Source: Nannocystis bainbridge (GTDB lineage: Bacteria > Myxococcota_A > Polyangia > Nannocystales > Nannocystaceae). Taken from it: a DNA stretch of 64,000 nucleotides. Below are positions 2,346-63,263 of this stretch, piece by piece (positions within the stretch are counted from its first letter, which is position 1; each line of letters starts with the position of its first letter). The translations under genes were made by a program, and so were the position numbers. Under the pieces are notes generated by a model. It saw only the letters and a program-made list of their open reading frames with translations, did not search any database and had not been told where the DNA came from. Where the stretch lies: the NCBI RefSeq assembly GCF_028368995.1, contig NZ_JAQNDL010000001.1:3584001-3648000 (forward strand), written 5' to 3'.

Positions 2346-2482
2346 GAGCTGGCCGCGATCCGCGGCGGCTGAGCTGCCCTTTCAGCCAGGTCGATTGCCG
2401 TGAGGTCGCCGCGCGGCCTGTCCTTCAAGACATGCCGCAACGGCGACCCGACAGACCTGGCCTTTCAGCCAGGCCCGCAGGC

Positions 2483-5400
2483 TCACGCCTTTGTCAGCGT
2501 GATCGCCACCGGCTCGTCGTCGATCGTGTCCTCGAGGACATGTTCGCCCGCCAGCGCCGTCTCCGGACCTACCACTTGCAGCGCGTCCGCGCGGGTCTCG
2601 CTGCGGATCTCCGCCGCGTGGGTCGCGTCGGCCAGGGCTGCCGCCAGCTCGCCGCTGCAGCGGAAGGTCACCACGATGCGCTCGTTCATCTCGAGGTCGT
2701 GGTCGCGCCGGAGGTCCTGCACGCGCTTCGTCAGCTCGCGGGCCAGGCCCTTGCGGCGCAGCGCCGGGGTCTGGGTGGTGTCGAGCACCACCGTCACCCC
2801 GGCCTCGTGCGCGACCACCAGGCCCGGACGCGGCGTGCGGGTCAGCAGCACGTCCTCGAGGCCGAGCGCCTCGCCCTCGACCTCGACGCGGCCCTCGGCG
2901 AGGAACCGGCGCAGGGCCGCCTGGTCGAGCGTCTGCACCGCCGCCGCGACCGCCTTCATCTTGCCGCCGAGGCGCTTGCCCAGCGTCTTGAAGTTGGCCT
3001 TGGCGCCGAGCTCGACCAGCGCGCTGTCGTCGGCCGAGGCCGCGACCTCCTCGACGTTGAGCTCGCCCTTGAGCTCCTCCTGCACCGCCGGGTCAGCGAA
3101 GCGGGCCAGCTCCTCCGCGCGCTCGTGCACGATCGTCAGCCGCGCCAGCGGCCGGCGCACGTTGATGCGCTCGCGCTCGCGCAGGCCGAGGCCGAGGCCG
3201 ACGACCTGGCGCTGGGCCGCGACCTCGCGCTCGAGCGCCTCGTCGCGGGCGAACGCGGCGGCCTCGGGGAAGCGGGTGAAGTGCACGCTCTCCTCGCCGG
3301 CCGCCGCCAGGCCCGCGTCGACCACCAGCCGCTGATAAAGATGCTCGGTGAAGAACGGCATCACCGGCGCCATCGCCCGCGCGATCGTCACCAGCGCCCG
3401 GTAGAGCGTCGCGTAGGCGCGCTGCTTGTCGACATCGGCCGGGTTGTTGGCGCGCCAGTAGCGACGCCGGCCGCGGCGGATGTACCAGTTGTTGAGGTCG
3501 TCGCAGATCTCGAGGAAATGCGGGACCAGGTTGGACAGCTCGTAGGCCTCGTACTCGCGGGTGAGGTTGTCGAGGAAGCCGCCGACGCGCGAGGTGATCC
3601 AGCGGTCGAGCGGGTGCTCGAGCGGCTGCGCCTCGAGGTCGGCGGCCGTCGGCGCCCAGCCGTCGGCCAGCGCGTAGGTGGTGAGGAAGTAGTACGCGCT
3701 CCACAGCGGCAAGATCGCCAGGCGGACCGTGTCCTTGACGCACTCGCCGGTCAGGTCGTTGGCGTCCCGGCCGAACTTCATCGGCTCGCCGCGGACCACC
3801 GCGCTGTTGATCAGGTAGGCGCGCAGGGCGTCGGCGCCGAAGCTGTCGATCACGCCCGCCGGGTCCGGGTAGTTCTTGAGCCGCTTCGACATCTTCTTGC
3901 CGTCGGCGGCGAGGATCAGCCCGTTGACGATCACGTTCTTGAACGCCGGCCGGCCGAACAGCGCAGTCGAAAGCACGTGCAGGGTGTAGAACCACCCGCG
4001 GGTCTGATCGAGGCCCTCGGCGATGAAGTCGGCCGGCAGGTTGTCCTCGACGTAGGCCCGCTTGTCGGCGTCGAACGGGTAGTGGTTCTGCGAGTAGGGC
4101 ATGCTGCCCGACTCGAACCAGCAGTCGAAGACCTCGGAGATCCGTCGGTAGGTGCCGCCGCCCGGCGCGGGCCAGCGGATGCCGTCGACGTTCTCGCGGT
4201 GGAGGTCGACGAGGCTGCCGGGGTCGAGGCCGGCGAGGCGCTCGAGCTCGCCGACGCTGCCGATGCAGATCATGTCCGCGGGGTCGCGATCGTTGCGCCA
4301 CACCGGCAGCGGCGTGCCCCAGTAGCGGTTGCGGCTGAGGTTCCAGTCGCGCGCGTTCTCCAGCCAGTTGCCGAACCGGCCGCTGCCGACGTGCTCGGGG
4401 ACCCACCGGATCTTCTTGTTGTTGGCGACCAGCTCGTCGCGCATGCCCTCCACGCGCATGAACCACGTCGAGAGCGCCATGTAGATCAGCGGCTGCTCGG
4501 TGCGGTAGCAGTGCGGGTACGGGTGGACGATCGTGTCCTGGTCGACGACCTTGTGCTCGCGCTTGAGGCGGTCGACGATCGGCTTGTCGGCGTCCTTGAC
4601 GAACAGGCCGGAGAACTCGCCGACGCGGTCGTCGAAGATGCCCGAGAGGTTGACCGGGCAGACGATCGGCAGGCCGTTGGCCTGGCCGACCTGGTAGTCG
4701 TCCTCGCCGAACGCCGGGGCCTGGTGGACGATGCCGGTGCCGCTGTCGGTCGACACGTAGGTCGCGCCGAGCACCTTGAAGCACCAGCGCCCGCCGTCAG
4801 GCCGCTCGCGCAGCTCGGCGAAGAACGGCAGCAGCGGCGCGTAGGGGCGGCCGACCAGGTCCTTGCCCTTGAGGCGCGCGAGCTCCTCGGTGGCGCCGAC
4901 GCGGCCGCGCTGCTGGTAGTCGGCGAGGCGACCGGGCTCGAGGTACGCGACCTCGCCGGTGTCGACCACGCGGACTTTGACGTAGTCGATGTCGGGGTGG
5001 ACCGCGAGCGCCAGGTTGCTCGGCAAGGTCCACGGGGTCGTGGTCCACGCCCACAGGTTCGCGTCCTCGTCCTCGAGGCGGAAGCGGACCGTGAGGCTCG
5101 GGTCCTGGCGCCGCTTGTGGCCCTCCTTGCGGGTCACCGGGTCCTTCTCTTGCGGGCCCTGGGCGACCTCGAAGTTGGACAGCGGGGTGCCCAGCGCCGG
5201 CGACACCGGCTGGACGCGGTAGCCCTCGTAGATGAGGCCCTTCTGCCACAGCTGGCCGAAGCACCACCACACGGACTCCATGAACGTGAAGTCCATGGTC
5301 TTGTAGTCGTCGCGGAAATCGACCCATCGGCCCATGCGACCGACGACCTTCTCCCACTCGGAGGTGAAGCGGAGGACGCCGGCGCGGCAGGCCGCGTTGA

Positions 5401-5785
5401 ACTGCGGCACGCCGTAGCCCTCGATGTCCGCCTTGCCGTGGAGGCCGAGCTCGCCCTCGACGAGGCTCTCGATCGGCAGGCCGTGGCAGTCCCAGCCGAA
5501 CCGGCGCTCGACGCTCCGCCCGCGCATGAACCAGAACCGCGGCACGATGTCCTTGATCGTGCCGGCCAGGAGATGGCCGTAGTGAGGAAGCCCGGTGGCG
5601 AACGGCGGGCCGTCGTAGAACACGAACGCGGGCCGGTCCGAGCCGTCGGCGCGCGTGGTGGTGCGCAAACTCTTGCCCTCGATGTCCCCGTCGCGCCAAA
5701 ATTGGAGGATCTCCTGCTCGAGGCGCGGGAGGTCGAGCTGCGAATTGGGCCTCAAGAACGGGGAAGCGGGCTTCGGGGCGGACAT
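2483..5785 (-). CDS. ileS: Isoleucine--tRNA ligase, type 2 (IleRS2-like)
   Basis: FYDGPPFATGLPHYGH, GWDCHGLP, WTTTPWTLPSN, EGLDQTRGWF, KMSKR; long C-terminus without the type-1 Zn finger. Confidence 0.96.
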   Translation of the reverse strand: MSAPKPASPFLRPNSQLDLPRLEQEILQFWRDGDIEGKSLRTTTRADGSDRPAFVFYDGPPFATGLPHYGHLLAGTIKDIVPRFWFMRGRSVERRFGWDCHGLPIESLVEGELGLHGKADIEGYGVPQFNAACRAGVLRFTSEWEKVVGRMGRWVDFRDDYKTMDFTFMESVWWCFGQLWQKGLIYEGYRVQPVSPALGTPLSNFEVAQGPQEKDPVTRKEGHKRRQDPSLTVRFRLEDEDANLWAWTTTPWTLPSNLALAVHPDIDYVKVRVVDTGEVAYLEPGRLADYQQRGRVGATEELARLKGKDLVGRPYAPLLPFFAELRERPDGGRWCFKVLGATYVSTDSGTGIVHQAPAFGEDDYQVGQANGLPIVCPVNLSGIFDDRVGEFSGLFVKDADKPIVDRLKREHKVVDQDTIVHPYPHCYRTEQPLIYMALSTWFMRVEGMRDELVANNKKIRWVPEHVGSGRFGNWLENARDWNLSRNRYWGTPLPVWRNDRDPADMICIGSVGELERLAGLDPGSLVDLHRENVDGIRWPAPGGGTYRRISEVFDCWFESGSMPYSQNHYPFDADKRAYVEDNLPADFIAEGLDQTRGWFYTLHVLSTALFGRPAFKNVIVNGLILAADGKKMSKRLKNYPDPAGVIDSFGADALRAYLINSAVVRGEPMKFGRDANDLTGECVKDTVRLAILPLWSAYYFLTTYALADGWAPTAADLEAQPLEHPLDRWITSRVGGFLDNLTREYEAYELSNLVPHFLEICDDLNNWYIRRGRRRYWRANNPADVDKQRAYATLYRALVTIARAMAPVMPFFTEHLYQRLVVDAGLAAAGEESVHFTRFPEAAAFARDEALEREVAAQRQVVGLGLGLRERERINVRRPLARLTIVHERAEELARFADPAVQEELKGELNVEEVAASADDSALVELGAKANFKTLGKRLGGKMKAVAAAVQTLDQAALRRFLAEGRVEVEGEALGLEDVLLTRTPRPGLVVAHEAGVTVVLDTTQTPALRRKGLARELTKRVQDLRRDHDLEMNERIVVTFRCSGELAAALADATHAAEIRSETRADALQVVGPETALAGEHVLEDTIDDEPVAITLTKA

Positions 5786-5975
5786 ACGGCCTGACTGCCT
5801 GCATGGCTCGCCCGCGGCCACAGGTCAAGTCCCCGCCGCGGGCGCGGCGAGGACGCCCTGCGCGCCGTGAAACCCGACCGGCTTCGGACCCGTCTCAGGC
5901 AAGCCTGCCGCGACGTTGTCGACACGCTCACGGCTGGGTATCCTGTCCCTCACCCCTCGCGAGGCCCTCCGGACC

Positions 5976-7252: not shown

Positions 7253-8302
7253 TCACCGCTCGGGCAGCGCCGCGATCGCCTCGGCGTGGCGGCCCTCGCC
7301 GACCACGTAGATCATCTCGGTGTTGCGCAGGTGGCTGACGCGGCCGACCTTCTCGCCGCGCGGGCTGTAGATCCCGATCTGGGCCCCGACGTAGCGCTTG
7401 TAGTCGAACGAAAGCACCCGCACCGGACCACGGCGGGCCAGCAGCGCCTCCAGCTCGGGGCGGCTCAGGTAGCCCTCGTCGCTGAACGAGACCACCATCA
7501 GCGGCGCTCGCACGGCGTCGATCAGCGCCTCCATGCTGGCGCGGATCTTGGTGCGGGCGTTGAACGGGCTGCGGCGCTCCTGGCAGTCGATGCGCTTGCG
7601 CGCGATCCCGTAGGCCTCGGGCGCGTCGCCGCGCACGATCGTCTCCCACACGTGGTAGTTGCCGAGGTACGAGTGTTGATTGTAGGGCGGGTCGAGGTAG
7701 GCGAGGTCGGCCTCGAGCACCGCCGCTGCCGCGACCGCGTCGAGCCCGTGCGCCTGGCCTTTCCCCCATGTCGCGCGGGACAGGACCTCCGGGACACGCA
7801 GCTCGAGGTCGCCGTGGGCGCGGGCGGCCCACGACTTGAGGTAGGCCATCTGCACGCCGGTGGTCGAGTCGACGCGGTCGGCGGCCTCGATGAGGGCGAC
7901 CAGCAGCACCGCCTCGAGCTCGGGCGCCAGGCCCTTGGCGGCGATCGCCCGGCGGATGGCGTCGATGCGGGCCCCGTTCTTCGGCTGGAAGAAGCGGGCC
8001 TCCTCGCAGAACGTGCGGGTCACGTAGCCGGGCTCGCCGGGCAGGGCGTTGAACTCGGTGACCAGGCGGCGGACATCCTCGACCACGTCCTCGCGGTCGG
8101 CCTCGACGTAGCAGCGGGCCAGCGTCTCCGCGTACTTGTTGTGGTCGTTGGCGAGCACGCGGTAGCCCGCGGCCTTGAGCGCGTGCCCGACCCGAGATGT
8201 CCCGGAGAACAGGTCGATCACCGTGCGGACCTCGGGCAGGCCGCGCACGATTCGCAAGATCTGCGGGATCAGCAGCCGCTTCGAGCCGAGGTACTTGATC
8301 AC
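7253..8302 (-). CDS. Orphan DNA adenine methyltransferase (D12 class, M.NlaIII/M.HpyI-like)
   Basis: YLGSK, DLFSGT (SAM binding), AND, YLDPPYN (m6A catalytic); GTG start overlaps the cpoB stop (GTGA). Confidence 0.9.
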   Translation of the reverse strand: MIKYLGSKRLLIPQILRIVRGLPEVRTVIDLFSGTSRVGHALKAAGYRVLANDHNKYAETLARCYVEADREDVVEDVRRLVTEFNALPGEPGYVTRTFCEEARFFQPKNGARIDAIRRAIAAKGLAPELEAVLLVALIEAADRVDSTTGVQMAYLKSWAARAHGDLELRVPEVLSRATWGKGQAHGLDAVAAAAVLEADLAYLDPPYNQHSYLGNYHVWETIVRGDAPEAYGIARKRIDCQERRSPFNARTKIRASMEALIDAVRAPLMVVSFSDEGYLSRPELEALLARRGPVRVLSFDYKRYVGAQIGIYSPRGEKVGRVSHLRNTEMIYVVGEGRHAEAIAALPER

Positions 8303-14637: not shown

Positions 14638-14643
14638 CCTCGG

Positions 14644-14706
14644 AGACATGTCCCCTCGGGCATGCCGCATCGAGCATGCCCTGGGGGACATGTCCGCCAG
14701 GACAGC
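14644..14706. repeat. 14-bp-period RRRCATGYYY array
   Basis: CATG at 14647, 14661, 14675, 14689; CAGC at 14703; fills the gap between convergent genes. Confidence 0.9.
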
Positions 14707-15186
14707 CTAGCTGTCCTGGATCTTGATCGTCCGGCAGCTCTCGCCGGCGATCTTCGGCATCTTGAGGGTCAGCACGCCCTTCTCGAGGTGGGCGTCGGCG
14801 GCGCTCGAGTCGACGTGGCACGGCAGCTCGACCCGGCGGATGAACGAGCCGAAGCTGCGCTCGTGGTAGAAGTAGTTCTCGTTGTCGTCGCGCAGCTCCT
14901 CGCGCTTCTCGCCGCGCAGGGTCAAGATGTTGCCCTCGACGCTGCACTCGACGTCCTTGCCGTCGAGGCCGGGGACCTCGGCGCGGACCATGATGCAGTC
15001 GCCGCAGTCGCTGACGCTGAGCATGGGGTAGTTGCCGACCTGTTCGAAGCCGAGCGGGAAGCGGCCGAACACGCGGTCGAACATGCGGTGCATGTCCTGC
15101 TGGAACGGCGACATCGGCGACGTCGGCGACGTCGGCGACATCAGGTTGCTGGCAGGTTGATTCTTCTTCCAGGGGAGCAGCGACAT
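14707..15186 (-). CDS. Small heat-shock protein (Hsp20/alpha-crystallin)
   Basis: VRAEVPG, LTLRGEK, ERSFGSFIRRVELP, GVLTLKMPK. Confidence 0.95.
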   Translation of the reverse strand: MSLLPWKKNQPASNLMSPTSPTSPMSPFQQDMHRMFDRVFGRFPLGFEQVGNYPMLSVSDCGDCIMVRAEVPGLDGKDVECSVEGNILTLRGEKREELRDDNENYFYHERSFGSFIRRVELPCHVDSSAADAHLEKGVLTLKMPKIAGESCRTIKIQDS

Positions 15187-15273
15187 GATCATCTCCTCAG
15201 CGCGGAGAACCATGGGCCGGACCCTCTCGCCCGCAAACGCAAAAATTTTGCGCGTGCGGGCCGAACTAAGCCG

Positions 15274-16539
15274 TCAGCGACCGACCACGCGGCCGCCGTG
15301 GACCACCGCGTCGATGAGCGGCGAGCCGGCGTGATAGACGAGGTCGCGGAAGTCGCCGGTCGCCAGCAGCACCAGATCGCCGGCCAGCCCGACCTCGACG
15401 CGGCCGCGCTCGCCGTGCAGGCCGAGCGAGGCCGCCGCGTTGTGGGTCGTCGCCGTCAGCGCCTCGGCGGGCGACAGCCGGTTGCCGTAGCAGGCCAGCG
15501 CCAGCACCGTCGACAGCGACTCGAGCGCGCACGAGCCCGGGTTGCAGTCGGTCGCCACCGCCACCGCCACGCCCGCCTTCACCAGCGCGCGCCCGTCGGC
15601 GAAGCCCTTGCCGAGCACCAGCGAGGTGCCGGGCAGCAGCGTCGCCACCACCCCGGCGTCACGCAGCGCCGCCCGCTCGACGTCGTCGAGGTGCAGCAGG
15701 TGGTCGGCCGAGCGGGCCCCGAACTCGGCCGCCAGCAGCGCCCCGCCGGTGTGGCCGAACTCGTTTGCGTGCAGGCGGATCGGCAGGCCCAGCGCGCGGG
15801 CGCGGAGCAAGATCTGCCGCGTCTCCTCGGGCGTGAACGCCCCGCGGTCGCAGAACACGTCGCAGAAGTCGGCCAGCCCCGCCGCCACGACCGCCGGCAG
15901 CACCTCGTCGCCGACCCGGCGCACGAACTCCTGCCGCCCCTCCGGCCGGTCGCGCAGCTCGGCCGGCAGCGCGTGCGCGGCCAGGCAGGTGGTGACCACG
16001 CGAACACCTGTCTCTTCAGCCAGGCGCCGCGCGACCCGCAGCTGGCGCAGCTCGGTCTCGAGGTCGAGCCCGTAGCCGCTCTTGATCTCGACCGCGGTGG
16101 TGCCGGCCCGGACCATGCGCCGCAGCCGGGTCGCGCTCTCGGCCAGCAGCGTGTCCTCGTCGCGCTCGCGAGTCTTGCGCACGCTGGAAAGAATCCCGCC
16201 GCCGGCGGCGAAGATCGCCTCGTAGTCGGCGCCGGCCAGCCGCATCTCGAGCTCGTCCTTGCGATCGCCGCCCCACACCAGGTGCGTGTGGCTGTCGACC
16301 AGCCCCGGCAGCAGCGCGCGCCCGCGGCAGTCGAGCTCGACGGCGCCGGCCGGAACCCGCTCGGGCTTCAGCTCGGCGTCGGGCCCGGCCCAGGCGATCG
16401 TCCCGGCGCGCACGACCACGCTCCAGCCCTCGCGCACGCCGAGCGCGGCCATCTCGGCGCCGGCGCGCGGCCTGTCCTTCGGGCCATCCGCGAGCGTGTA
16501 CACCCGCGCCGCCGCGCGCAGCAGCAGGTCGCCGCTCAT
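15274..16539 (-). CDS. hutI: Imidazolonepropionase
   Basis: [39 protein letters not shown]; ATGA-coupled to hutU. Confidence 0.95.
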
Positions 16540-18206: not shown

Positions 18207-18301
18207 GGTGCCCGAGGGTAGCAAGCCCACGCCGCCCCGGCGGCCCGCGCGGGCGTGACTTTGTCGGCGGCACGGCCTGCGCAGGCCGTGCCCGCCCGGC
18301 C

Positions 18302-24004: not shown

Positions 24005-24010
24005 CCATCA

Positions 24011-44289: not shown

Positions 44290-44318
44290 CCCGCGGCGAC
44301 GACCGTCGCCCGCACCCA

Positions 44319-46354: not shown

Positions 46355-46360
46355 ACCATC

Positions 46361-51131: not shown

Positions 51132-51168
51132 AGGCCCGCGCGGGCGCGCCAGCCGGCGCGCCCGCGAT

Positions 51169-51274
51169 CGCCATGCTTTGCAGACATGTCCTTCAGAGCA
51201 TGCTCCAATGAGCATGTCTTATGTGACATGTTATTCAGGACATGATTCCATGAACATGCCCGCCTGGGCACGTC
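51169..51274. repeat. Longest 14-bp-period CATG array
   Basis: CATG at 51185, 51199, 51213, 51227, 51241, 51255; CACG at 51269; CATG at 51172 is 13 bp off. Confidence 0.92.
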
Positions 51275-51299
51275 ACTCTCTATAAAAGATAGAGAGCGT

Positions 51300-54140: not shown

Positions 54141-54458
54141 CTTCTTTTAAAAGGGGGGGCGCCCGCCCACCGCCTCTCTCGGCCCATCATCGGTCATGCC
54201 GGCCGCCCGGCCAACCTCGGCCGCGCCCCGGCGCCACCGGCGCGCGCGGCTCGCTTCCGCGCCCGCACGCGATCGCCTCCGCGCACGCACGCACCGCGAG
54301 CGCCGCTCTCTCGGGGAGTCGCGCCCGCAAGGCCCATCACCGCCAGCTCGCGGATCGTCGACAACTCGCGCGCCGGCGCCTCGCGGGCCCGTCGCTCCCG
54401 AAACGCGGGTGCTCCGGCGGCCTCCCATGCCCCGGCGAGACAGGCCGATAGGCTCGAC

Positions 54459-54818
54459 TCACGGTTCAGCTTGCTGGGCGATCGTCAGCTCGGTCTGTGC
54501 CTCGAGCTCGCCGAAGGTCCGGTGGTGGACGATGCGGCAGCGCTGGACCACGCCGACGAGCTGGTACTTTGGCTTCGCCCGGGCATCGATCCCTGGACCG
54601 ACCGCGAGCGGCTTGCCCGCCTGCTTCTCGCCGGAGGTGCCGGTGAGCTTGTCGGAGACGTACTCGACCCCGGTGACGAGGTCGATGATCTGGGGCTCGT
54701 GCTCGAGGACCGCCATCTTCCCGCCGAAGATTCCGCCCTGCATGCACTCGTACCAGACGACCTGGACGCGATGGCCCACGGGCACCGGCGCGTGAAACAG
54801 GACAGCGATCTTCTGCAT
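54459..54818 (-). CDS. Small hypothetical protein
   Basis: MQKIAVLFHAPVPVGHRV...; coding bias. Confidence 0.65.
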   Translation of the reverse strand: MQKIAVLFHAPVPVGHRVQVVWYECMQGGIFGGKMAVLEHEPQIIDLVTGVEYVSDKLTGTSGEKQAGKPLAVGPGIDARAKPKYQLVGVVQRCRIVHHRTFGELEAQTELTIAQQAEP

Positions 54819-55210
54819 TCGCCGAGGATAGCCGCGACGTGACCGGCCGCCCAGCGGGCTCCGCTGCAGTCGCCGCGCGGGGAGTTCACCGCGACGTGCG
54901 AGGATGCGCGGCGACGAGGGCTTGCAATCGCATGCCTCCCGCCAGCTGGACATCGCTCGCGTATGCCGCCTGGACGCACGGAATCGGCCCGATGCTCGGC
55001 GCGTCCGGTCATCCGTGCGCTCCGCTTGCGCGGTCGTCGAAATACCTGTCCTTTCGGACATCTGACTCCGCGCGCCGGGGTCATGTTTGCGATCGTCGGT
55101 GTTCGCCTCGGGGCCGGGAGCAGCGAGCCTCCGAGCTCATGCCGCACGAAGCCTGCCGCTCGGGGACTTCACGCTGGCCGGGCCTGCGCCCTGGCGTACA
55201 ATGCCCGCGC

Positions 55211-56098
55211 ATGCAGCCGGTCGTCGGAGGGTTCACCAGCGAGGCCGGGCGCGCCGCCTTCATGCGCGCCCACGACGAGGCCATGCGGTGCCTGCCCGCG
55301 CCCGAGGCCAGCTTCGAGGTCGCCACCAGCTTCGGCACCGTGCGCGCCTGGCGGTTCGCCGGGCCGGGCGACACCCCGCTCGTGCTGCTGCCGGGCAAGG
55401 CCTCGAGCACCCCGCTGTGGGCCGGCAACCTGCCGGGCCTGCAGGCGCTCGCCCCGGTCGTCGCCCTCGACCTGCTCGGCGAGCCGGGCCGTTCGGTGCA
55501 GACGCGACCGATCACCACCGCCTCCGAGCAGGCCCAGTGGCTCGACGAGGCGCTGGCCGGCCTCGGCATCGCCCGCGCGCACGTGCTCGGGGTCTCGTTC
55601 GGCGGCTGGTCGGCGGTCAACCTGGCGATCCACCGCCCGCAGCGGGTCGCCTCGGTGATCGCCCTCGACCCCGCGCTCACGTTCGGGCCGATCGGCGCCA
55701 AGGTGGTGCTGTTCTCGGTGCTGGCCCTGCCGTTCATGCCCCGGCGCGTGCGGAGCTTCGCGCTGTCGTGGATCGCCGGCGGCGCGCGGACGGCCGAAGA
55801 CAGCGCCGAGGGCCGCCTCATCGAGGTCGGCATGCGCGTTTACAAGTCGCGCCTGCCGATGCCCACCTATCCGACCGACGCCTCGCTGCGATCGGTGACC
55901 GTGCCCGCGCTGGTCGTGATCGCCGGACGCAGCATCATTCACGATCCGCCGCGCGCCGCCGCCCGCGCCCGTCTGCTCCCGCGGGCGCAGGTCGAGCTGT
56001 GGCCCGACGCCTCGCACGCGCTCACCGGCGAGTATCCTGAACGCATCGCCCTGGCCGTCGCTGGCTTTCTCGCCCGACAGTCGGCCGGCGCGCCGTGA
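55211..56098 (+). CDS. Alpha/beta hydrolase (carboxylesterase-like)
   Basis: PLVLLPG, DLLGEPGRS, GVSFGG nucleophile elbow, ASH. Confidence 0.92.
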   Translation: MQPVVGGFTSEAGRAAFMRAHDEAMRCLPAPEASFEVATSFGTVRAWRFAGPGDTPLVLLPGKASSTPLWAGNLPGLQALAPVVALDLLGEPGRSVQTRPITTASEQAQWLDEALAGLGIARAHVLGVSFGGWSAVNLAIHRPQRVASVIALDPALTFGPIGAKVVLFSVLALPFMPRRVRSFALSWIAGGARTAEDSAEGRLIEVGMRVYKSRLPMPTYPTDASLRSVTVPALVVIAGRSIIHDPPRAAARARLLPRAQVELWPDASHALTGEYPERIALAVAGFLARQSAGAP

Positions 56099-56267
56099 CG
56101 AACACGGCCAATTCGCCGGCGTACGGCGGCGGCGAGGCCGGCGAATGTCACGAGGCGCGAATACGACGAGCGCCGCGACGCCGACGTCCTCGGCCGCGAG
56201 CATCCACGATAGTGAATCACGGCACCGCGTTGTCGTGGCTGGCGGCGCTTGATACGGTGATGGTGCT

Positions 56268-56813
56268 TTGGACTGGACCGCCTCTGTTCTCGTGTTCGCG
56301 CTCGCGGGCGCCGCCCCGACGGTGAAGGACAGCGGCCAGACGGCGCCGGGGACGGAGGTCGTGCGGGTCAAGCGGGACTTCGGCAAGCCGCACTTCGACC
56401 TGGCGATCGACGCGTGGGTGTCGGCCGACGCGACGCGGCTCGACGAGGCCCGGCTGTGGTGGGTCAACACGGCCGAGCAGGACCGGCGCAAGCCGCTCGG
56501 GCCGATGGTCGAGCGCATGGTCAAGCTGCGCTACCACCGGGCCTCGAGCCGCTCGCTGACGGTCACGGTCACCGGCGACGACAAGGAGTTCGCGTTCGTG
56601 CTCGAGCTGGCCGAGTCGGGCCAGCTGCACGCGTTCGTCGCCATCGACACCGAGCAGGGCCGCCACGTCCCGCGCTGCCGCCTCAGCACGGCCCACCTGA
56701 TCGCCCACCGCGTGCTCGGCATGCCGGTCGGCCTCGCCCGCGTCAACGTCACCTGCAGCGACGCCGGCGGCGCGGTCCACAAGGGCACCGTCCGCCACCG
56801 CGAAGTCAGCTGA
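56268..56813 (+). CDS. Hypothetical exported protein
   Basis: Signal-like N-terminus; coding bias; start uncertain. Confidence 0.65.
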   Translation: MDWTASVLVFALAGAAPTVKDSGQTAPGTEVVRVKRDFGKPHFDLAIDAWVSADATRLDEARLWWVNTAEQDRRKPLGPMVERMVKLRYHRASSRSLTVTVTGDDKEFAFVLELAESGQLHAFVAIDTEQGRHVPRCRLSTAHLIAHRVLGMPVGLARVNVTCSDAGGAVHKGTVRHREVS

Positions 56814-56839
56814 CGGCGAAGTTTCTTTGGCAGGATGAA

Positions 56840-56903
56840 CGACATGCCCGTTCGGGCATGTCGTTTGGAGCATGCTCTTCGGAGCATGCTCATAAGGACG
56901 TGC
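56840..56903. repeat. 14-bp-period CATG array
   Basis: CATG at 56843, 56857, 56871, 56885; CGTG at 56899. Confidence 0.9.
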
Positions 56904-57015
56904 GAATCATAGGCCGCGCTCGGCCATGTCGCTACGGGTTCACCGGCTCGCGTCGCGTGACGCAGAACCACGACTGCCGCGCTCTAACCTGTCCTTTCGA
57001 ACATGCCGGCGAATC

Positions 57016-57105
57016 GGCCCGGCTGCGCTCGGACCTGTGCTTTCGAGCATGCCCGCGACCTGGCCCGGCCGCGCTCGGACCTGTGCTTTCGGGCATTCGC
57101 GCGAC
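57016..57105. repeat. 46-bp tandem duplication containing a motif variant
   Basis: ggcccggc(t/c)gcgctcggacctgtgctttcg(a/g)gcat at 57016 and 57062. Confidence 0.8.
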
Positions 57106-57194
57106 GACGAGCGACCGGCCTCGTGCGCGGTCGTGCTCGCCGCGAGCCCTTTGACACCCTTCTGCGCCCGCTGCGGCGCCGGCCCCGGGGAATC

Positions 57195-57235
57195 TAAGTC
57201 ATGCGTTTGACTTAATCAGTCGCACGACTTAGACC
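57195..57235 (+). promoter_or_regulatory. Putative sigma70 promoter overlapped by TetR-type operator palindromes
   Basis: TAAGTCA-N6-TGACTTA (57195-57214), AGTCG-CA-CGACT (57218-57229); TTGACT-17bp-TAGACC. Confidence 0.7.
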
Positions 57236-57254
57236 TGCCGATGCAGAGGTTTTC

Positions 57255-58472
57255 ATGAGCATCGACAGCAGCAGCAGCAGCAACGAGCCGGTCTTGGACT
57301 ATCCCCTCCCTTTGCCCAGCGCCCTCGAGCCGCCCGCGGAGTGGGCCAAGTTGCGGGCGGGCTGCCCGATCGCCCACGTGCGGCTGCCCAGCGGTGACAG
57401 CGCGGTGCTGCTGACCCGCTACCAGGACGTGCGCCAGGTGCTGGCCGACCCGCGGTTCACGCGCCAGCTCGGCAAGGAGGGCGCTGCGCGGATCTCCGAG
57501 GAGCCGGGCGGCGTGTTCGAGAGCCAGGAGGCGGCCTCGCTGACCGAGGGGCACGAGCGCTGGCGGCGGCTGCTGGCCAAGTCGTTCACCGCCAAGCGGG
57601 TGTCGGCGATGCAGCCGCGGATCGAGGCGATGGCCGATCAGCTGATCGACGAGATGGTGCAGCAGGGCGCGCCCGCCGACCTGATGGCGGCGCTGGCGTT
57701 CCCGTTGCCGGTGTGGGTGATCTGCGAGCTGCTGGGGATCCCCAGCATCGACCGCGACAAGCTGGCCCACTGGTCCAACGCGATGCTCAACCTGTCGCAG
57801 TTCACGCGCCAGGAGATGGAGGCGGCCCAGGCCGAGTTCTCGGCGTACATGTCGATGCACATCGCCGCCAAGCGGGCCGCGCCGGGCGAGGACCTGCTGA
57901 GCGAGCTGGTCGCGGCGGTCGACGAGGGCCACCCGCTGACCGAGCTCGAGCTGATGATGATCGGCCAGGGCATCCTGGTCGCCGGCCACGAGACGACCTC
58001 GAACACGATCGCCAAGATGATGGGGATGCTGCTCGGCGACCGCGAGCGCTGGGAGCTGCTGGTCGCCGACCCGTCGCTGGTCCGCACGACGGTCGAGGAG
58101 GCGCTGCGCTTCGACGCCAACGCCGGCTTCGGGCTGCCCCGCTTCATCACCGAGGAGCTCGAGGTGGCGGGCCAGACGCTGCCGCCCGGGACGACGGTGA
58201 TCTGCAGCATGGCGGCGGCCAACCGCGACGAGCAGGCGTTCGAGCGCGCCGACACGATGGACCTGCGCCGCTCGCCCAACGCCCACCTCACGTTCGGCGC
58301 CGGGCCGTACTCGTGCGTCGGCCAGGCGCTGGCGCGGACCGAGCTGCAGACGGTGCTGAACGCGCTGCTGCGCCGTCTGCCGACGCTGGCGCTGGCGGTC
58401 CCGGCCAGCGACCTGGCCCGCCGCGAGGGCCTGCTGATCGGCGGACTCGAGCGGGTTCCAGTACGCTGGTGA
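57255..58472 (+). CDS. Cytochrome P450
   Basis: AGHETT, EEALR, FGAGPYSCVG heme motif. Confidence 0.96.
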   Translation: MSIDSSSSSNEPVLDYPLPLPSALEPPAEWAKLRAGCPIAHVRLPSGDSAVLLTRYQDVRQVLADPRFTRQLGKEGAARISEEPGGVFESQEAASLTEGHERWRRLLAKSFTAKRVSAMQPRIEAMADQLIDEMVQQGAPADLMAALAFPLPVWVICELLGIPSIDRDKLAHWSNAMLNLSQFTRQEMEAAQAEFSAYMSMHIAAKRAAPGEDLLSELVAAVDEGHPLTELELMMIGQGILVAGHETTSNTIAKMMGMLLGDRERWELLVADPSLVRTTVEEALRFDANAGFGLPRFITEELEVAGQTLPPGTTVICSMAAANRDEQAFERADTMDLRRSPNAHLTFGAGPYSCVGQALARTELQTVLNALLRRLPTLALAVPASDLARREGLLIGGLERVPVRW

Positions 58473-58475
58473 CCC

Positions 58476-59126
58476 ATGGCCGGACCACGCACGAGGCAAG
58501 CCCACGCCACCGAGACCCGCGAGCTCATCCTTTCGACGGCGGAGCGCCTGTTCGCCGAACAAGGCGTGGCCGCGGTCTCGAACCGACAGATCAGCGAAGC
58601 GGCCGGCCAGGCCAACAACTTCGCCGTGGGCTACCACTTCGGCACCAAGACCGACCTCGTGCTGGCGATCGTCCGCCGCGATTCACCGTCGATCGAGCGG
58701 CGACGCATGGAGATGCTGGCCGGCCTCCGCGGCTCGCAGACGCTGCGCGACTGGCTGGCCTGCCTGGTCCTGCCGCTCACCGAACACATCGCGTCGCTCG
58801 GCTCGCCGAGCTGGTACGCGCGCTTCATCGCCCAGGCGACGACGGACCCGGCGCTGCGCCAGCTGGTGATCGCGGAGACGGCGGTGTCGCCGTCGATGCG
58901 CGCGGTCACGGAGGGGCTGGAGCGGCTGCTGCCAGTGCTGCCGGCGGACGTGGCAGCAGAGCGCGGCGACATGAGCCGCCACCTGATCGTGCACGTGTGC
59001 GCGGAGCGCGAGCGAGCGCTCCAAGAAGGGGCGACGACGCCGCGCGCGACGTGGGAAGGCGCAGCCGCGGGCCTCATCGATGCGCTGGCAGGGCTGTGGC
59101 AAGCGCCGTTCACACCGACCGATTGA
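58476..59126 (+). CDS. TetR family regulator
   Basis: ILSTAERLFAEQG...SNRQISEAAGQANNFAVGYHFGTK. Confidence 0.93.
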   Translation: MAGPRTRQAHATETRELILSTAERLFAEQGVAAVSNRQISEAAGQANNFAVGYHFGTKTDLVLAIVRRDSPSIERRRMEMLAGLRGSQTLRDWLACLVLPLTEHIASLGSPSWYARFIAQATTDPALRQLVIAETAVSPSMRAVTEGLERLLPVLPADVAAERGDMSRHLIVHVCAERERALQEGATTPRATWEGAAAGLIDALAGLWQAPFTPTD

Positions 59127-59169
59127 AACTGCTTCACCCGAATTTCAAAGAATCGAAGGAGAGCCGACC

Positions 59170-59361
59170 ATGCGCGTGATTGTCGATCTTGAAAAATGCT
59201 GCGGGGCGGGCCAGTGCTGCTTGCTGGCGCCGCGAGTGTTCGATCAACAGGACGACGGGATGGTGATCTTGCTGGACCCGTCGCCGCCGGCAGAGCTGCA
59301 CGCGGCGGTGCGCGAGGCGGCTTGCGTGTGCCCGGGAGCGGCGATCGCCGTCGAGGGGTGA
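59170..59361 (+). CDS. [3Fe-4S]-type ferredoxin
   Basis: CCGAGQC...APRVF...CP; RBS gaaggag. Confidence 0.92.
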   Translation: MRVIVDLEKCCGAGQCCLLAPRVFDQQDDGMVILLDPSPPAELHAAVREAACVCPGAAIAVEG

Positions 59362-59652
59362 GCCATTAATTAAAATCGGTGCACCGCGAGAGCCGGGGCT
59401 CTGCTTCGCGGTGGCTGGGGGCTCTGCTCGCACGTCGGGGCGATTCGCTCACGGAAGCATGGGGAGCGTCTGGCGGGCGGCTCGGGTTCACGGGGTGTTT
59501 GTGACATCCCAGCGATCGCGGCCCCACTTCGCGGCGGCTTGCGTCTGCCCGGGGGCGGCGATCCGCGGCCCATCGGGTAGCTGTCGCTATTTCGGTGTGA
59601 CTTCCATGAAGCGACCGCGTCGAGCAGGAGTGAGCCTGCGCGGCGCGCCGGA

Positions 59653-60645
59653 TCAGGTCTCGAGCAGCCGCTCGCTCAGCTCCCAGAGTCGCCGCGCCGA
59701 CTCTGGATCGATCGCGTGCGACGCGGCCTCGGCGGGGATGCTCTCCGGGGTGAGCGGCCTCGATTCGTCATCGAGGCGCGAGATGTCGTTGTCCTTGAGG
59801 TAGACGCCGCCGATGTCCGCGAGGAGAGGGCTCGTCGCGGCGAACACGATGGTGCTCGCGCCCTGCTGGGCCGTCTTTTTGCCGCGCTCCGGATCGATGA
59901 TGGGGTGGCCCGAGTCGTCGATGAGCCCCATCGCGCGCAGCCCGTCCGCGCCGGCCGCGCTGTTCAGCGTCGTGCCGACGACGACGCCGGGATGCACCGC
60001 GTAGCCGCGGATCCCTTCACCGGCGAAGCGCCGGTCCAGCTCGACGGCGAACAGCACGTTGGCCAATTTCGCCTGCGCGTACGCGGCGAGCGGGTCGTAC
60101 CCCGTCGAGAAGTTCGGGTCGTCCCACCGGATCCGGCCCATCCGTTGCGCTCCTGACGAGACCACCACGACCCTCGCGCCCTTCGCCGCCCGCAGGGCCC
60201 GCAAGAGCCCCAGGGTGAGCTGGAAATGGCCGAGGTGGCTCGTCGAGAGCTGCACTTCGAAGCCACGTGAATCGCGGGTGATCGTCCCGGGAGCCGGCAG
60301 GGCGGCGCTGTTCACGAGGACGTGGAGCGGACGGCGCGATTCGAGCCAGCGGCTGGTGAAGGCGTCGATGGACCGCGGATCGACGAGGTCGAGCTGGCCG
60401 ACCTCGACCCGCTCGATGCCCGCCAGCGCCAGCGCAGCGCGGGCCGGATCGCGCGCGCCCACGGTGACGGACGCGCCGGCCCTGGCCAGCGCCCGCGTCG
60501 TCTCGAGGCCGATCCCGGCGTGGCCCCCCGTGACGATGATGTGCTTGCCGCCGAGCTCGACGCCGGCGAGGACGTCGTCCGCCGTCGCCGCAGCGCCGAA
60601 CCCGCTGCCGATGGGATGCTGCTTGTGATGCATGCGGACCTTCAT
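59653..60645 (-). CDS. Short-chain dehydrogenase/reductase (RDH/WWOX-like)
   Basis: VTGGHAGIG, HLGHFQL, YAQAK, VHPG. Confidence 0.93.
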   Translation of the reverse strand: MKVRMHHKQHPIGSGFGAAATADDVLAGVELGGKHIIVTGGHAGIGLETTRALARAGASVTVGARDPARAALALAGIERVEVGQLDLVDPRSIDAFTSRWLESRRPLHVLVNSAALPAPGTITRDSRGFEVQLSTSHLGHFQLTLGLLRALRAAKGARVVVVSSGAQRMGRIRWDDPNFSTGYDPLAAYAQAKLANVLFAVELDRRFAGEGIRGYAVHPGVVVGTTLNSAAGADGLRAMGLIDDSGHPIIDPERGKKTAQQGASTIVFAATSPLLADIGGVYLKDNDISRLDDESRPLTPESIPAEAASHAIDPESARRLWELSERLLET

Positions 60646-61058
60646 GCCCCTCCTGGCGGCGCCAGGATTGGAAGGACCGGACAAATCCGCGGCTCGCTGG
60701 CACAGCGTCGACCTGATGCGAACCCCGTCACGGCGCGAGATGTCCTTGAGGACAGCCTGGGCGCGCGCTTGCCCAGAGAGGGGCTTCGGGTCAGCCTGCA
60801 ATCGGCGCCGGAGACAGCCCGACGGCCCGGCCTCACGCAGGACGGCGAGTCCCGCGAGCGGCGCGCCCCGCCGGTGAGCCCGCGCCAGAATGGCGAGGCA
60901 CCCCGATCGACGCCATGGCTGGCCGCCGAACAGCCGCCTTCTCGCTTCAATCATGCAGGCCTCTCCGGCCTCATCTCGCATGATTCGGTGCGGCGCGCTG
61001 AGTCGTGTGATTCGAATCGTCAAGACGAGTGACGAGACGTCATTCGTCGTACGAGCGC

Positions 61059-61646
61059 TCACGGGAGCATGGGCAGCCTCTGGCGGGAGGCCCAGGTCCA
61101 CGGGGTATTCGTGGCATCCCATCGATAGCGGCCCCATTTTTTAAAATACGGGTTCTCCTCGCGCCAGGCCGCGTACTCCGGGGCGCGGCCGAAGGTGACG
61201 CCTTCGAACGACCAGGCGTGCGCGAACAATTCGGCGCCGTCGGTGCAGCGCAGGAACACGGCGGCGATCCTGACCTCGCGCAGGGCCTCGTCGTGCTCGG
61301 CGACCAGCTCGAGCGTGGAGATCGCGGCGGGTTCACGCGCGGGATCGAGGAGGAAGCCGTCGGCGTCGAGGATGCACAGGTCTTCGAGGCTGTCGCTATC
61401 GATCGATGCGGGCGGCTCGGGGCGCACGGCTGGGGTCGCGGTCAGGATGCCCTGATGATTGTCGAACCAGACGACGCCTTCGCTGAGCTCGAGCCAGAAC
61501 CCTGCGAGCAGAAACGGCCGGTAGAAGGGCAGCGGGTGGTCGTTGTCGGAGTGACGGAGGCCGAGCACGAGCACGCTGCCGAGCCCCGCGGGCGCGAGCA
61601 CGGCGAGGGTGCGGTCGAGCGGCGCTTCGGCGGACACTTCGTGCAT
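61059..61646 (-). CDS. Hypothetical protein
   Basis: ORF with protein-like composition; no family recognised. Confidence 0.55.
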   Translation of the reverse strand: MHEVSAEAPLDRTLAVLAPAGLGSVLVLGLRHSDNDHPLPFYRPFLLAGFWLELSEGVVWFDNHQGILTATPAVRPEPPASIDSDSLEDLCILDADGFLLDPAREPAAISTLELVAEHDEALREVRIAAVFLRCTDGAELFAHAWSFEGVTFGRAPEYAAWREENPYFKKWGRYRWDATNTPWTWASRQRLPMLP

Positions 61647-61790
61647 CGTAACAGTTCGCCGCGACACGGCGCTCCCGCGGCCTGTTGCGGCCTGCACGAC
61701 GCCGCGCGATCCGTCGCTCGCACCCCGCCATGCCGGTTCGATGTGCGCACCTCGCCGCCTCGATCGCCGCCGGCTCGCGCTTCTCCGTCA

Positions 61791-61876
61791 CCTCGCCGAA
61801 CTCGGCGTGCACCACCCAATCATGCGAGCGCCTCGCCGAGCTCGGCGTGCACCGCCCAGTCACGCGAGCGCCTCGC
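61791..61876. repeat. 40-bp tandem repeat (2.15 copies)
   Basis: cctcgccga(a/g)ctcggcgtgcacc(a/g)ccca(a/g)tca(t/c)gcgagcg x2. Confidence 0.85.
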
Positions 61877-61912
61877 TACGATTGTAAAATTCACCGGTGA
61901 CGACGACGCTCG

Positions 61913-62758
61913 TCACGCGACGCGTTCGACGTCGACGGGCGCGAAGGCGGCGGCCTGGGCGGCGCAGCGGGCCGCGTATTCGCTGGGGGCGCTGCCGATG
62001 AAGGCCTTGAAGTCGCGGATGAAGTGGGCCTGGTCGAAGTAACCGAGCTCGGCGGCCAGGGTCGCGCCGTCGAGGACGCGGCCGGCGGCGAGGCGCTCGG
62101 CGGCTTCGTGGAGGCGGAAGCAGCGGATGACCCACTTGGGGCCGACGCCGACGTAGCGGCGGAACAGCCGCTGCAATGTTCGGGCGGGGATCTGCGCCAG
62201 CTCGGCGAGCTGTTCGACGCGGGCGATCGCCGGGCGGTCGAGGGCGAGCTGGACCACTTCGACCACGCGTTCGACGCTGGGGTCGGGGGCGGGAGCCCGC
62301 GCGCGCAGGAAGGCCTCGACGAGGTCGACCTGGGCGGCGTCGTCGTCGCAGGCGAGCACGGCGGCAGCGAGCTCGTCGGCGACCGGGCCGAACACGTCGC
62401 GCATGGGGACGCTGCGACCTGTGAGCTGGGCCAGCGGGCGCTGCAGGAACGGGAAGAAGGCGCCAGGGCGGAACTTGGTGCCGAACACGCGGCCCTCGCC
62501 GCGCAGCTCGACGCCGGCCCGCCGCGGGGCGCAGCCGTGCAGGGCGGCGCCGTGGGCGGTGATCGCCAGGTTGACGCACGGGTGCGGCAGCGTCTCCTGC
62601 ACGTGCGGCGGGCGGCCGCGCAGGTCCCAGCGCACGGTCCAGTGGCGCTCGACCCACGGCGACAGGTCGTCGGCCGGCAGGTGCCGCGTCAGCGCGAACT
62701 GCCCGCGCGCGGCCTGCGGATGGAGGACCCCTCCCGAGCGCGTGCTGGCGCGGTGCAT
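61913..62758 (-). CDS. AraC family regulator
   Basis: TLPHPCVNL; RTLQRLFRRYVGVGPKW; LGYFDQAHFIRDFK. Confidence 0.93.
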   Translation of the reverse strand: MHRASTRSGGVLHPQAARGQFALTRHLPADDLSPWVERHWTVRWDLRGRPPHVQETLPHPCVNLAITAHGAALHGCAPRRAGVELRGEGRVFGTKFRPGAFFPFLQRPLAQLTGRSVPMRDVFGPVADELAAAVLACDDDAAQVDLVEAFLRARAPAPDPSVERVVEVVQLALDRPAIARVEQLAELAQIPARTLQRLFRRYVGVGPKWVIRCFRLHEAAERLAAGRVLDGATLAAELGYFDQAHFIRDFKAFIGSAPSEYAARCAAQAAAFAPVDVERVA

Positions 62759-62812
62759 CGGCGTGTCGCATTTCTACAATACGCGGCCCGGCCGTGTCAT
62801 GAGGATCGGCGC

Positions 62813-63175
62813 ATGACTCAAGCCACCAAGCACTCCGGCGGATGCCACTGCGGTAAGGTCCGCTACGAAGTCGGCGTCGACCTCGGCCAGCCCATCCTGT
62901 CCTGCAACTGCAGCATCTGCGGCAAGACCGGCAGCCTGCTGGCGTTCGTGCCGAAGAGCGAGTTCCGCCTGACCGCCGGCGACGACCGCCTCACCGACTA
63001 CCAGTTCGCCAGCAAGACCATCCACCACAAGTTCTGCGACACCTGCGGGATCCGCTCGTTCGCCAACGGCGTCGGCCCCGACGGCACCGAGATGATCGCC
63101 GTCAACATCCGCTGCCTCGACGACGTCGACCTCGACGCGCTCACCATCAACAAGTACGACGGCAAGAGCAGCTGA
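62813..63175 (+). CDS. GFA / CENP-V-like aldehyde-activating protein
   Basis: GGCHCG, CNCSIC, FCDTCG, VNIRCL. Confidence 0.93.
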   Translation: MTQATKHSGGCHCGKVRYEVGVDLGQPILSCNCSICGKTGSLLAFVPKSEFRLTAGDDRLTDYQFASKTIHHKFCDTCGIRSFANGVGPDGTEMIAVNIRCLDDVDLDALTINKYDGKSS

Positions 63176-63183
63176 GCCCGATC

Positions 63184-63263
63184 CTACATGTCCTTGTGGG
63201 CATGTTTCTTAAAACATGTCCGAATGGACATTACTCGAAGGGCATGTCTTGAAAGACATGCTC
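63184..63263. repeat. 14-bp-period CATG array
   Basis: CATG at 63187, 63201, 63215, 63243, 63257; CATT at 63229. Confidence 0.92.

Follow-up and report, generated by a model that had tools for sequence, protein, structure and literature searches.

A 14-bp inverted-repeat unit, single inside genes and stacked in phased arrays past stop codons, in Nannocystis genomes

What is the element that recurs, in strict phase, shortly past so many stop codons of the myxobacterium Nannocystis bainbridge? The question is raised by a stretch of 64,000 nt (positions 3,584,001 to 3,648,000 of contig NZ_JAQNDL010000001.1; hereafter the window), in which CATG tetranucleotides follow each other in arrays at exact 14-bp intervals. 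A reading made without database searches, here called the sequence-only reading, had described the arrays as repeats of RRRCATGYYY-N4 and had offered two explanations: a binding site for a cooperative or nucleoid protein, or hairpins with tetraloops at gene 3′ ends that resemble repetitive extragenic palindromic (REP) elements. We find that the element is real, abundant and lineage-specific, that its unit is a different one, and that this unit is read as sequence. Our tentative explanation is a site for a dimeric factor that is kept genome-wide and stacked into arrays at gene ends.

The repeating unit and its spacing

The window has a G+C content of 71.7% and 230 CATG sites, whose distances are sharply phased: 25 pairs lie 14 bp apart, 13 lie 28 bp apart, 8 lie 42 bp apart and 5 lie 56 bp apart, against 0–3 pairs at neighbouring off-phase values (one at 13 bp, two at 15 bp). 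Compared with 100 dinucleotide-preserving shuffles, RRRCATGYYY-N4-RRRCATGYYY with at most one mismatch matches 16 times where 0.00 matches are expected, no shuffle giving any match, and exact TGYCC-N4-GGRCA matches 23 times against an expectation of 0.38, a count that none of the shuffles reaches. The same phase holds throughout the 11.05-Mb assembly, which consists of five contigs (C1 to C5, with the window in C1). The genome-wide CATG autocorrelation, for which peaks at 14 and 28 bp had been predicted, gives 3736 pairs at 14 bp, compared with 72 for a spacing one base shorter and 262 for one base longer, and continues with 2073 pairs at 28 bp, 1586 at 42 bp and 751 at 56 bp over an off-phase level of about 100. 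Phased chains of at least two CATG number 2338, and the longest has 20 units.

The CATG palindrome itself is not the repeating unit. The unit profile is nnGGACATGTCCnn, with purine/pyrimidine variation beside CATG, and the everted pair TGYCC-N4-GGRCA is found in 2828 exact genome copies, compared with 93 when the spacer is N3 and 54 when it is N5. In the abutting arrangement, GGRCA followed directly by TGYCC, there are 1771 copies. At the right-hand end of an array the last CATG is followed by YCC-N4-GGnCA and then by background, and the left-hand end is the mirror image (1976 ends). Arrays thus finish in half-units that complete a dyad, which identifies the repeating unit as the 5-4-5 dyad TGYCC-N4-GGRCA, with consensus TGTCC-N4-GGACA, and not as RRRCATGYYY-N4. 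CATG is the seam between units, and recurs every 14 bp because each junction of two abutting units makes one. The resemblance of RRRCATGYYY to the p53 half-site is, as had been supposed, a coincidence.

Adjacent strong units are spaced by 14 bp in 3868 cases, compared with 26 at 13 bp and 33 at 15 bp, and full units form runs of two (1806), three (430), four (281), five (237), six (148), seven (29) and eight (7). The spacers had been noted as variable and are indeed highly diverse, the commonest 4-mer making up 3.1% of 2770. Neighbouring units share an identical spacer in 4.5% of cases versus 1.2% for random pairs, so that some units must be recent tandem duplicates while most are not. Compared with the cores ACATGT, GCATGT and ACATGC, the core GCATGC is rarer than expected among the units of the whole genome (odds ratio 0.55, p = 7e-12).

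Motif density along the genome averages about 11–16 per 50 kb and correlates with G+C content (r 0.45–0.66). Islands of lower G+C (0.68–0.70) are nearly free of the motif, for example positions 1.10–1.30 Mb of C1, with 0–2 per 50 kb versus a mean of 12.7; such islands may have been acquired or may consist of very long biosynthetic genes. No Rfam family reaches its gathering score in the window, and a search of viral contigs for the double unit gave 0 matches.

Selection inside genes and variation of the stem

About a third of the exact units (969 of 2828) lie at least 30 nt inside called genes, as defined by a purpose-made caller of open reading frames (ORFs) based on G+C at third codon positions, for which start codons are especially uncertain (cleaned set, 7546 genes). 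Counted over whole ORFs there are 1070 copies, compared with 78 after synonymous-codon shuffling (six replicates, range 66–93) and 27.5 after codon-order shuffling. Other spacings, taken as controls, stay flat, with 62 observed versus 40 shuffled copies at N3 and 40 versus 50 at N5, and the half-site alone is not enriched in genes (38449 versus 39425 shuffled), so that the inverted pair is the unit. By codon phase the intragenic copies number 559, 418 and 93, that is, they occupy mostly two phases.

A comparison with one other Nannocystis species, over 241 kb of aligned sequence, shows how these copies are kept. Sixteen of 19 intragenic copies are still exact in the second species, and the third codon positions within their stems are identical in 76 of 76 cases, compared with 63654 of 74324 (85.6%) for all third positions; third positions in the loop are identical in 17 of 19. 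Taken together, the synonymous enrichment and the stem third-position identity argue for purifying selection, or an equivalent drive, on the motif as a nucleotide sequence. In the window, intragenic copies occur in genuine genes, among them those for a class-I tRNA synthetase, urocanase and a SpoIIE/FHA phosphatase; they are built with the genome-rare T-ending codons CAT, TAT, CTT and CCT, and their motif bases are common to up to six species.

The stem itself tells how the motif is read. With the other positions held fixed, each stem variant was counted at N4 and set against the background at N3, N5 and N6. Variants that deviate on one side only are enriched 20–46 fold (T-C 451/13, C-A 381/12, G-A 335/10, A-A 230/5), whereas compensatory Watson-Crick variants stay at background, both here (G-C 78/63, A-T 25/12) and at the next pair (T-A 172/127, G-C 57/77). 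At the middle pair C-A (381) is in fact commoner than C-G (146), and within arrays C-A makes up 631 of 2849 Y/R combinations at this pair. The enriched double variant TGTCT...AGACA occurs 157 times, near the product of the single frequencies (about 124). There is no preference among tetraloops either: GNRA spacers number 36 against 33 for the reverse complement, and TTCG 24 against 28 for CGAA. Because one-sided deviations are enriched and compensatory ones are not, the half-sites are read as sequence, independently and at a fixed distance, and are not kept as a hairpin; such independence at a fixed spacing is characteristic of double-stranded DNA being read by a dimer. Sequence-specific reading of the 14-bp dyad is well supported.

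Arrays at gene ends and in the window

Of 988 arrays with at least three CATG, 753 are intergenic, 92 partly so and 143 inside called ORFs; those that can be classified comprise 458 in convergent, 306 in tandem and 38 in divergent position. The distance from stop codon to array has a median of 17–23 bp, and in tandem pairs the array adjoins the upstream gene, which bears out the earlier observation that arrays start shortly past stop codons and often between convergent genes. Two or more strong units are present in 696 of 1253 convergent intergenic regions (56%), versus 19–24% of tandem and 14% of divergent regions. Motif density follows the same order, with 2.75 per kb in convergent, 0.97 in tandem and 0.32 in divergent regions and 0.118 in coding sequence, where chance would give about 0.006.

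The arrays do not have the form of an intrinsic (Rho-independent) terminator, in which a GC-rich hairpin is followed directly by a U-tract. No T-run follows arrays in tandem context, the T frequency being at most 0.25 at each of 30 positions, and a scan of window positions 44001-64000 for consensus terminators found no hairpin plus T-run at gene ends except for the first hairpin of the array at 63182. Strong hairpins other than arrays (−25 kcal/mol or lower) were predicted in 44% of array-free convergent regions, in 20% of array-bearing convergent regions after masking and in 27% of array-free divergent regions, a complementary pattern that gives modest support to arrays as transcript-end structures, as the lengths compared differ.

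The presence of arrays is conserved between species. Over 120 orthologous intergenic regions of two species, arrays are present in both for 22, in one only for 10 and 11, and in neither for 77, an odds ratio of about 15, and unit number is equal in only 5 of the 22 shared arrays. In aligned orthologous arrays the identity is 0.60 for spacers and 0.70 for stems versus 0.80 for other intergenic DNA, figures that carry little weight because repeats align ambiguously. A protein encoded in the window is 97–98% identical to its orthologues in four other Nannocystis species. The array at 14642 has four units in five of six species and three in the sixth, with nearly invariant cores and free spacers. 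The other arrays of the window keep their place after the same stop codon across species with unit numbers of 1–6; for the array at 22266, orthologous regions have arrays at other places within the region.

The copies in the window are listed in Table 1, with array coordinates from a position-weight scan and from direct reading of the sequence, which together found the phased arrays where the sequence-only reading had put them. The array described at 46364-46406 with four units is present, with the difference that its strong units are two (46387-46414), the count of four including two weaker CATG upstream. Most of the short copies reported as two-unit copies were found, exact or with one mismatch, at 2412, 7230, 23737, 23987, 26831, 26883, 27651/27719/27840, 55047, 56983 and 60741.

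Table 1. Copies of the dyad in the window, with their neighbouring genes (window coordinates)
Feature	Position	Peptide and codons	Context or conservation
Array, 4 CATG-centred units + terminal half-unit (TGTCC-GCCA-GGACA)	14642-14704		Between convergent genes
Genes flanking the 14642 array	Unknown 235-aa gene ending 14637; Hsp20 gene 14707-15213, minus		Convergent pair
Array, 5 units	22266-22335		Begins 10 nt past stop of FG-GAP/cadherin-like gene (19671-22256, plus)
Array, 3 units	41351-41392		Overlaps stop of ClpB gene (38737-41355, plus); GC-rich hairpin next
2 units + weaker CATG units upstream from ~46365	46387-46414		Past SpoIIE/FHA phosphatase gene (44648-46354, plus)
Array, 6 units + terminal TGCCC-GCCT-GGGCA	51180-51270 (6 units 51180-51263; terminal 51257-51270)		Between convergent genes
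Genes flanking the 51180 array	WGR-domain protein 46527-51131, plus; Ser/Thr kinase 51300-54140, minus
Array, 4 units; unit 2 the exact reverse complement of unit 1	56838-56893		From position-weight scan
Array, 6 units	63182-63265		Begins 7 nt past stop of GFA-domain gene (62024-63175, plus)
Single long hairpin copy CATGTCC-CTTC-GGACATG	23730-23757		Right past stop of DUF4915 gene
Near-twin with same CTTC spacer	23980-24007		Other end of same convergent intergenic region, beside neighbour gene
Two short copies	26831-26844, 26883-26910 (within 26826-26910)		Both ends of 87-bp convergent intergenic region
Three isolated exact units	27651, 27719, 27840 (27651-27853)		One intergenic region
Degenerate two-unit copies	56983-57056		Inside 46-bp tandem repeat
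Exact unit in class-I tRNA-synthetase gene (Pfam tRNA-synt_1; 2483-5821, minus)	2527-2540	HVLEDT, rare CAT	Kept in 5 of 6 species
Two-unit copy in urocanase gene (16536-18230, minus)	17383-17410	YVPDDMS, rare TAT	Motif bases kept in six species
Exact unit in gene 27910-30963 (minus)	29316-29329	GHAPKDT	Identical in six species
Exact unit + one-mismatch unit in SpoIIE/FHA phosphatase gene	45661-45688	LVPRDMS, rare CTT and CCT	Stems identical in six species
Exact unit in 1534-aa WGR-domain gene	48146-48159		Degenerate in other species

We considered whether the twin hairpins at 23730 and 23980 bound a mobile element and rejected this, the 223 nt between them being unique in the genome. A mobile element was likewise rejected for the five longest arrays, whose flanking genes are ordinary (GTPase, PLP enzyme, PAS/STAS, radical SAM, kinase). 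The region at 26826-26910 corresponds to 1.2–1.4 kb in four of five other species and to 157 bp in the fifth, with units again at the ends. More widely, at 26820-26906, 46355-46526 and 51132-51299 the flanking genes are the same in most other species but stand an additional 1.2–5 kb apart, with units at the edges of the added DNA; arrays may mark places where genes are gained or lost.

Several further repeats lie in the window. A second, looser hairpin type, GACCTGGCC-TTTC-AGCCAGGTC with variants in which CCTG...CAGG replaces CATG, is found at 2318-2482; it recurs past stop codons in orthologous regions of several species and may be related to the motif or have decayed from it. At 51275-51298, directly past the 51180 array, stands a perfect hairpin rich in A+T, CTCTCTAT-AAAAG-ATAGAGAG, which is unusual at 72% G+C. 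Two tandem repeats are present as well, one of 67 bp (2.2 copies) at 362-511 and one of 46 bp (2.8 copies) at 56976-57105. The 1534-aa protein encoded at 46527-51131 (plus) has an N-terminal part made of long AKKA-type Lys/Ala repeats, which are encoded by tandem repeats of 12–72 bp at 46653-47060, and a C-terminal WGR as its sole domain.

Taxonomic range and competing explanations

A survey of related genomes, as proposed in the sequence-only reading, places the arrays within one genus. A pattern of four phased CATG matches 869 times in the window genome, 409–527 times in five other Nannocystis genomes of 12–13 Mb and 1–13 times in five further ones that are smaller and less complete; there are 0 matches in 30 genomes of other genera, and its reversed control has 0 matches. 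Among 400 further genomes of the phylum, 15 have 1–5 matches, those listed being plain tandem repeats with identical spacers. Phased arrays are thus abundant only in six genomes of the genus, of 11–13 Mb. The single dyad reaches further. It is enriched in all 10 of 10 genus genomes (170–2846 versus 8–34 for the reversed control) and moderately or weakly enriched in two sister genera (246 versus 47, and 233 versus 18), and the other 28 genomes have 4–73 versus 6–47; within the family, 12 of the genera sampled show no enrichment. The two sister genera have one double unit each, with one mismatch allowed, and exact double units number 0–14 in the smaller genus genomes compared with 114 in the window genome. 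It is likely that single sites came first and arrays later.

We know of several systems that share part of this picture. Closest to the single sites is HIP1 (highly iterated palindrome 1, GCGATCGC, in cyanobacteria), likewise a hyper-abundant palindrome that is lineage-wide, over-represented when codon usage is taken into account and kept within and between ORFs, with its function unsettled (PMC5861425, PMC13756078). The codon-aware over-representation and the conservation of sites between species that characterise HIP1 are both found for the Nannocystis motif. However, HIP1 is a contiguous 8-mer, whereas the Nannocystis motif is a dyad in two parts, between which 4 bp are free to vary; its density in non-coding 3′ regions is also 7–23 times that in genes, and it forms strictly phased head-to-tail arrays, which appear in neither of the two HIP1 abstracts. 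Neither the literature on Nannocystis nor that on myxobacterial palindromic or intergenic repeats, with subscription journals outside its scope, yielded a description of the element. With the same scope, a search for TGTCC/GGACA operators gave none clearly relevant among the matches listed.

The reading that we favour, with some hesitation, combines two layers. In the first, TGYCC-N4-GGRCA is maintained by selection across the whole genome, including inside genes, in the manner of HIP1, and would be recognised by a sequence-specific factor. The reader would most likely be a dimeric DNA-binding protein, with one subunit on each 5-bp half-site and the 4-bp centre uncontacted; independent half-sites, a fixed distance between their centres and a free centre are features of a dyad operator of the dimeric-repressor type. 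In the second layer, units are stacked head to tail where sequence is least constrained, directly past stop codons and especially between convergent genes. Arrays of 2–7 sites would load several dimers about 120 degrees apart round the helix. When transcribed, such arrays can also fold into long hairpins, and they would probably act as transcript-end elements of the REP type or of the related bacterial interspersed mosaic elements (BIMEs), as roadblock, terminator or 3′-end stabiliser; this role at transcript ends is plausible. What the data show directly is the motif with its strict spacing, its placement, the selection on its stem bases, the independence of its half-sites and its taxonomic range; protein binding, double-stranded DNA as its target and any effect on transcription or the nucleoid are what we infer from these patterns. 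Accordingly, the proposal of a cooperative or nucleoid binding site gains from the strict N4, the free spacer, the independent half-sites and the intragenic purifying selection, but no protein was identified and nothing shows cooperativity.

A number of observations pull the other way. The arrays sit hard against stop codons, as elements of RNA 3′ ends do. There is weak but significant complementarity centred on the spacers, in excess of what the column frequencies give, reaching about 15 positions out into the neighbouring spacers with z up to 9.6 and absent around CATG, which a model of DNA reading only does not predict. Y/R choices across the spacer covary positively (odds ratio 1.7–1.95). 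Mutual information on CATG-conditioned units gave nothing; restricted 2x2 tables and a symmetry scan then gave weak complementarity. Real arrays are predicted to fold 2.1 kcal/mol better than rebuilds from random real units (385 of 652, p = 2e-9), again not predicted by DNA reading only, although most of the energy (−33.6 of −35.7 kcal/mol) comes from the consensus itself. Array-level hairpin potential is thus a weaker, additional feature besides the reading of sequence. Intragenic copies are spread evenly along genes except for the first decile, which has 179 compared with about 100 in each of the others; this excess probably reflects over-extended start codons, so that some 'intragenic' copies would be artefacts. 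The synonymous-site selection would also be explained by a reader at the level of RNA or single strands, or by a drive through biased uptake or repair. Finally, 223 genes have the motif in their upstream divergent region, 145 of them encoding at most 400 aa, and the top 20 of these 145, which were scanned, contain no DNA-binding domain. An autoregulated binding protein therefore has no candidate among these 20 genes; three small unknowns among the candidates have low-complexity or secreted-looking translations.

A bolder version of protein binding is lineage-specific genome marking, in which a putative dimer would read TGTCC-N4-GGACA at selected sites in their thousands and would form polymers on the phased arrays at gene ends. 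Filaments of protein and DNA made in this way would serve as roadblocks to transcription, as insulators or as boundaries of nucleoid domains. Short, often palindromic, abutting sites in fixed phase, on which dimers align along the helix, are familiar from MetJ met-boxes, omega-repressor heptads and the ParR/TubR centromere iterons. Those systems serve few promoters or centromeres per replicon, whereas Nannocystis has arrays at about 1000 gene 3′ ends and single sites inside genes as well. We regard this version as rather doubtful. If true, it would be a new way both to end transcription units and to keep them apart in a large, high-G+C genome with few canonical terminators.

Alternatively, the arrays could be REP/BIME-like stem-loops, transcribed with a 5-bp stem and a 4-nt loop, that stop transcription from either side or shield the 3′ ends of mRNA, their consensus persisting by descent or through a factor that binds hairpins in RNA or single strands. 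Like the REPs and BIMEs of Enterobacteria, Pseudomonas and Stenotrophomonas, the Nannocystis units are short palindromes in hundreds to thousands of copies, which gather in regularly spaced arrays past the 3′ ends of genes, also where two genes converge, and can form hairpins in transcripts. For REPs the proposed roles are those of terminator, stabiliser and protein-binding site, and E. coli REP325 is reported to be both terminator and stabiliser. The placement just past stop codons, the arrays in over half of convergent intergenic regions, the spacer-centred complementarity, the half-unit ends, the complementary distribution of arrays and other strong hairpins and the lack of canonical hairpin plus T-run terminators at gene ends in 20 kb of the window are all as expected. 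Predicted RNA folds agree, with −41 to −54 kcal/mol (z −4.3 to −6.7) for seven array folds and −4.9 to −7 kcal/mol for single units; the array at 56838-56893, for example, gives two hairpins with −41.7 kcal/mol (z −6.67).

However, the parallel fails in several respects. The Nannocystis unit has a length of 14 bp (5-4-5) and follows the next one without a linker, whereas REPs are 20–40 bp with variable linkers, and the GTAG or CGTC tag described for REPs in PMC3733652 is absent from the unit profile, the flanks of a unit being its neighbouring units. The Y1/RAYT (REP-associated tyrosine transposase) family PF01797 has 0 matches in the window genome and was likewise found in none of five further Nannocystis genomes rich in arrays, of which one is a single contig, while a control search matched in 6 of 14 reference genomes. 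Of the hallmarks of REPs, high-copy 3′-end arrays are therefore present, even if about a third of the exact units are intragenic, and the RAYT gene, the tagged 20–40-bp palindrome and a stem-loop kept as structure are missing. Pairing of the 5-bp stem is not conserved, C-A exceeding C-G and compensatory variants staying at background; the loop is strict in length with no preferred tetraloop, no T-run follows the arrays, and some 1000 copies are under selection inside genes, where terminators would do harm. An excess of G/U over A/C on the sense strand at first looked like a sign of RNA structure, but convergent arrays taken as a control were asymmetric too, and the test is uninformative because spacers and stems share a replication-type GC skew of 7–10%, which accounts for the enrichment; the G-rich strand folds better irrespective of the direction of transcription. 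We therefore consider it unlikely that stem-loops alone explain the element, and the earlier suggestion of REP-like hairpins is supported by the gene-end position, the weak complementarity and the half-unit ends, while its tetraloops are not.

The GC skew is noteworthy in itself, being unusually strong and constant over megabases. Read on the plus strand, it is about −7% in contigs C1, C2 and C5, whereas C4 and the initial 1.5 Mb of C3 have +8%. Genes show no strand bias with respect to this skew (5037 of 10289 raw ORFs on the G-rich strand).

It is still less probable that the motif has no function at each site and is kept by a molecular drive, either as a signal for DNA uptake and recombination or through biased repair that regenerates it, with arrays accumulating where they do least harm. 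Uptake sequences, namely the DNA uptake sequence (DUS) of Neisseria and the uptake signal sequence (USS) of Pasteurellaceae, are also words specific to a genus or family, present thousands of times both in genes and in non-coding DNA. In many cases two DUS stand as an inverted pair and form a terminator-like hairpin past a gene. A drive would fit the lineage specificity and hyper-abundance of the motif in coding and non-coding DNA alike, its density graded by constraint, the low-density islands of lower G+C, as expected of recently acquired DNA, the labile unit number and the slippage seen in identical neighbouring spacers. The abundance and intragenic bias of DUS are documented in PMC2346458, and for HIP1, which shows the same kind of conservation, an uptake hypothesis is now among the proposals. 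Yet DUS and USS are asymmetric words that are enriched on their own, whereas here only the N4 inverted pair is enriched, and the complete synonymous identity of stems between two species fits direct selection at least equally well. Words of the HIP1 kind are contiguous and recognised by orphan methyltransferases. The window encodes one D12-class (Dam-like) adenine methyltransferase (7253-8302, minus), but homologues occur in 21 of 24 other genomes of the family, so that this enzyme does not track the motif.

A functionless palindromic minisatellite spreading by slippage and template switching, to which one might ascribe the recent unit duplications, the rapid turnover of unit number and the faster divergence of the ambiguously aligned array sequence, is already disfavoured by the synonymous-shuffling and third-position results and is very improbable, because it can neither make about 1000 isolated in-frame copies with fixed synonymous sites in conserved genes nor explain strict N4 spacing at independent loci or conserved placement across species.

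The motif presents a second, independent instance of the puzzle posed by HIP1, a palindrome held by selection throughout a genome, and it offers handles that HIP1 does not: a bipartite dyad that suggests a dimer, arrays suited to pull-down, and a graded series of lineages with no enrichment, with single sites and with arrays. It is also a sharp marker of the genus, and in the engineering of Nannocystis genes synonymous recoding would destroy selected sites. If a factor reads the motif, it touches more than half of the convergent gene ends and about 1000 intragenic sites in myxobacterial genomes of 11–13 Mb, and would, if this is true, be a major and so far undescribed organiser of transcription-unit ends or of the nucleoid.

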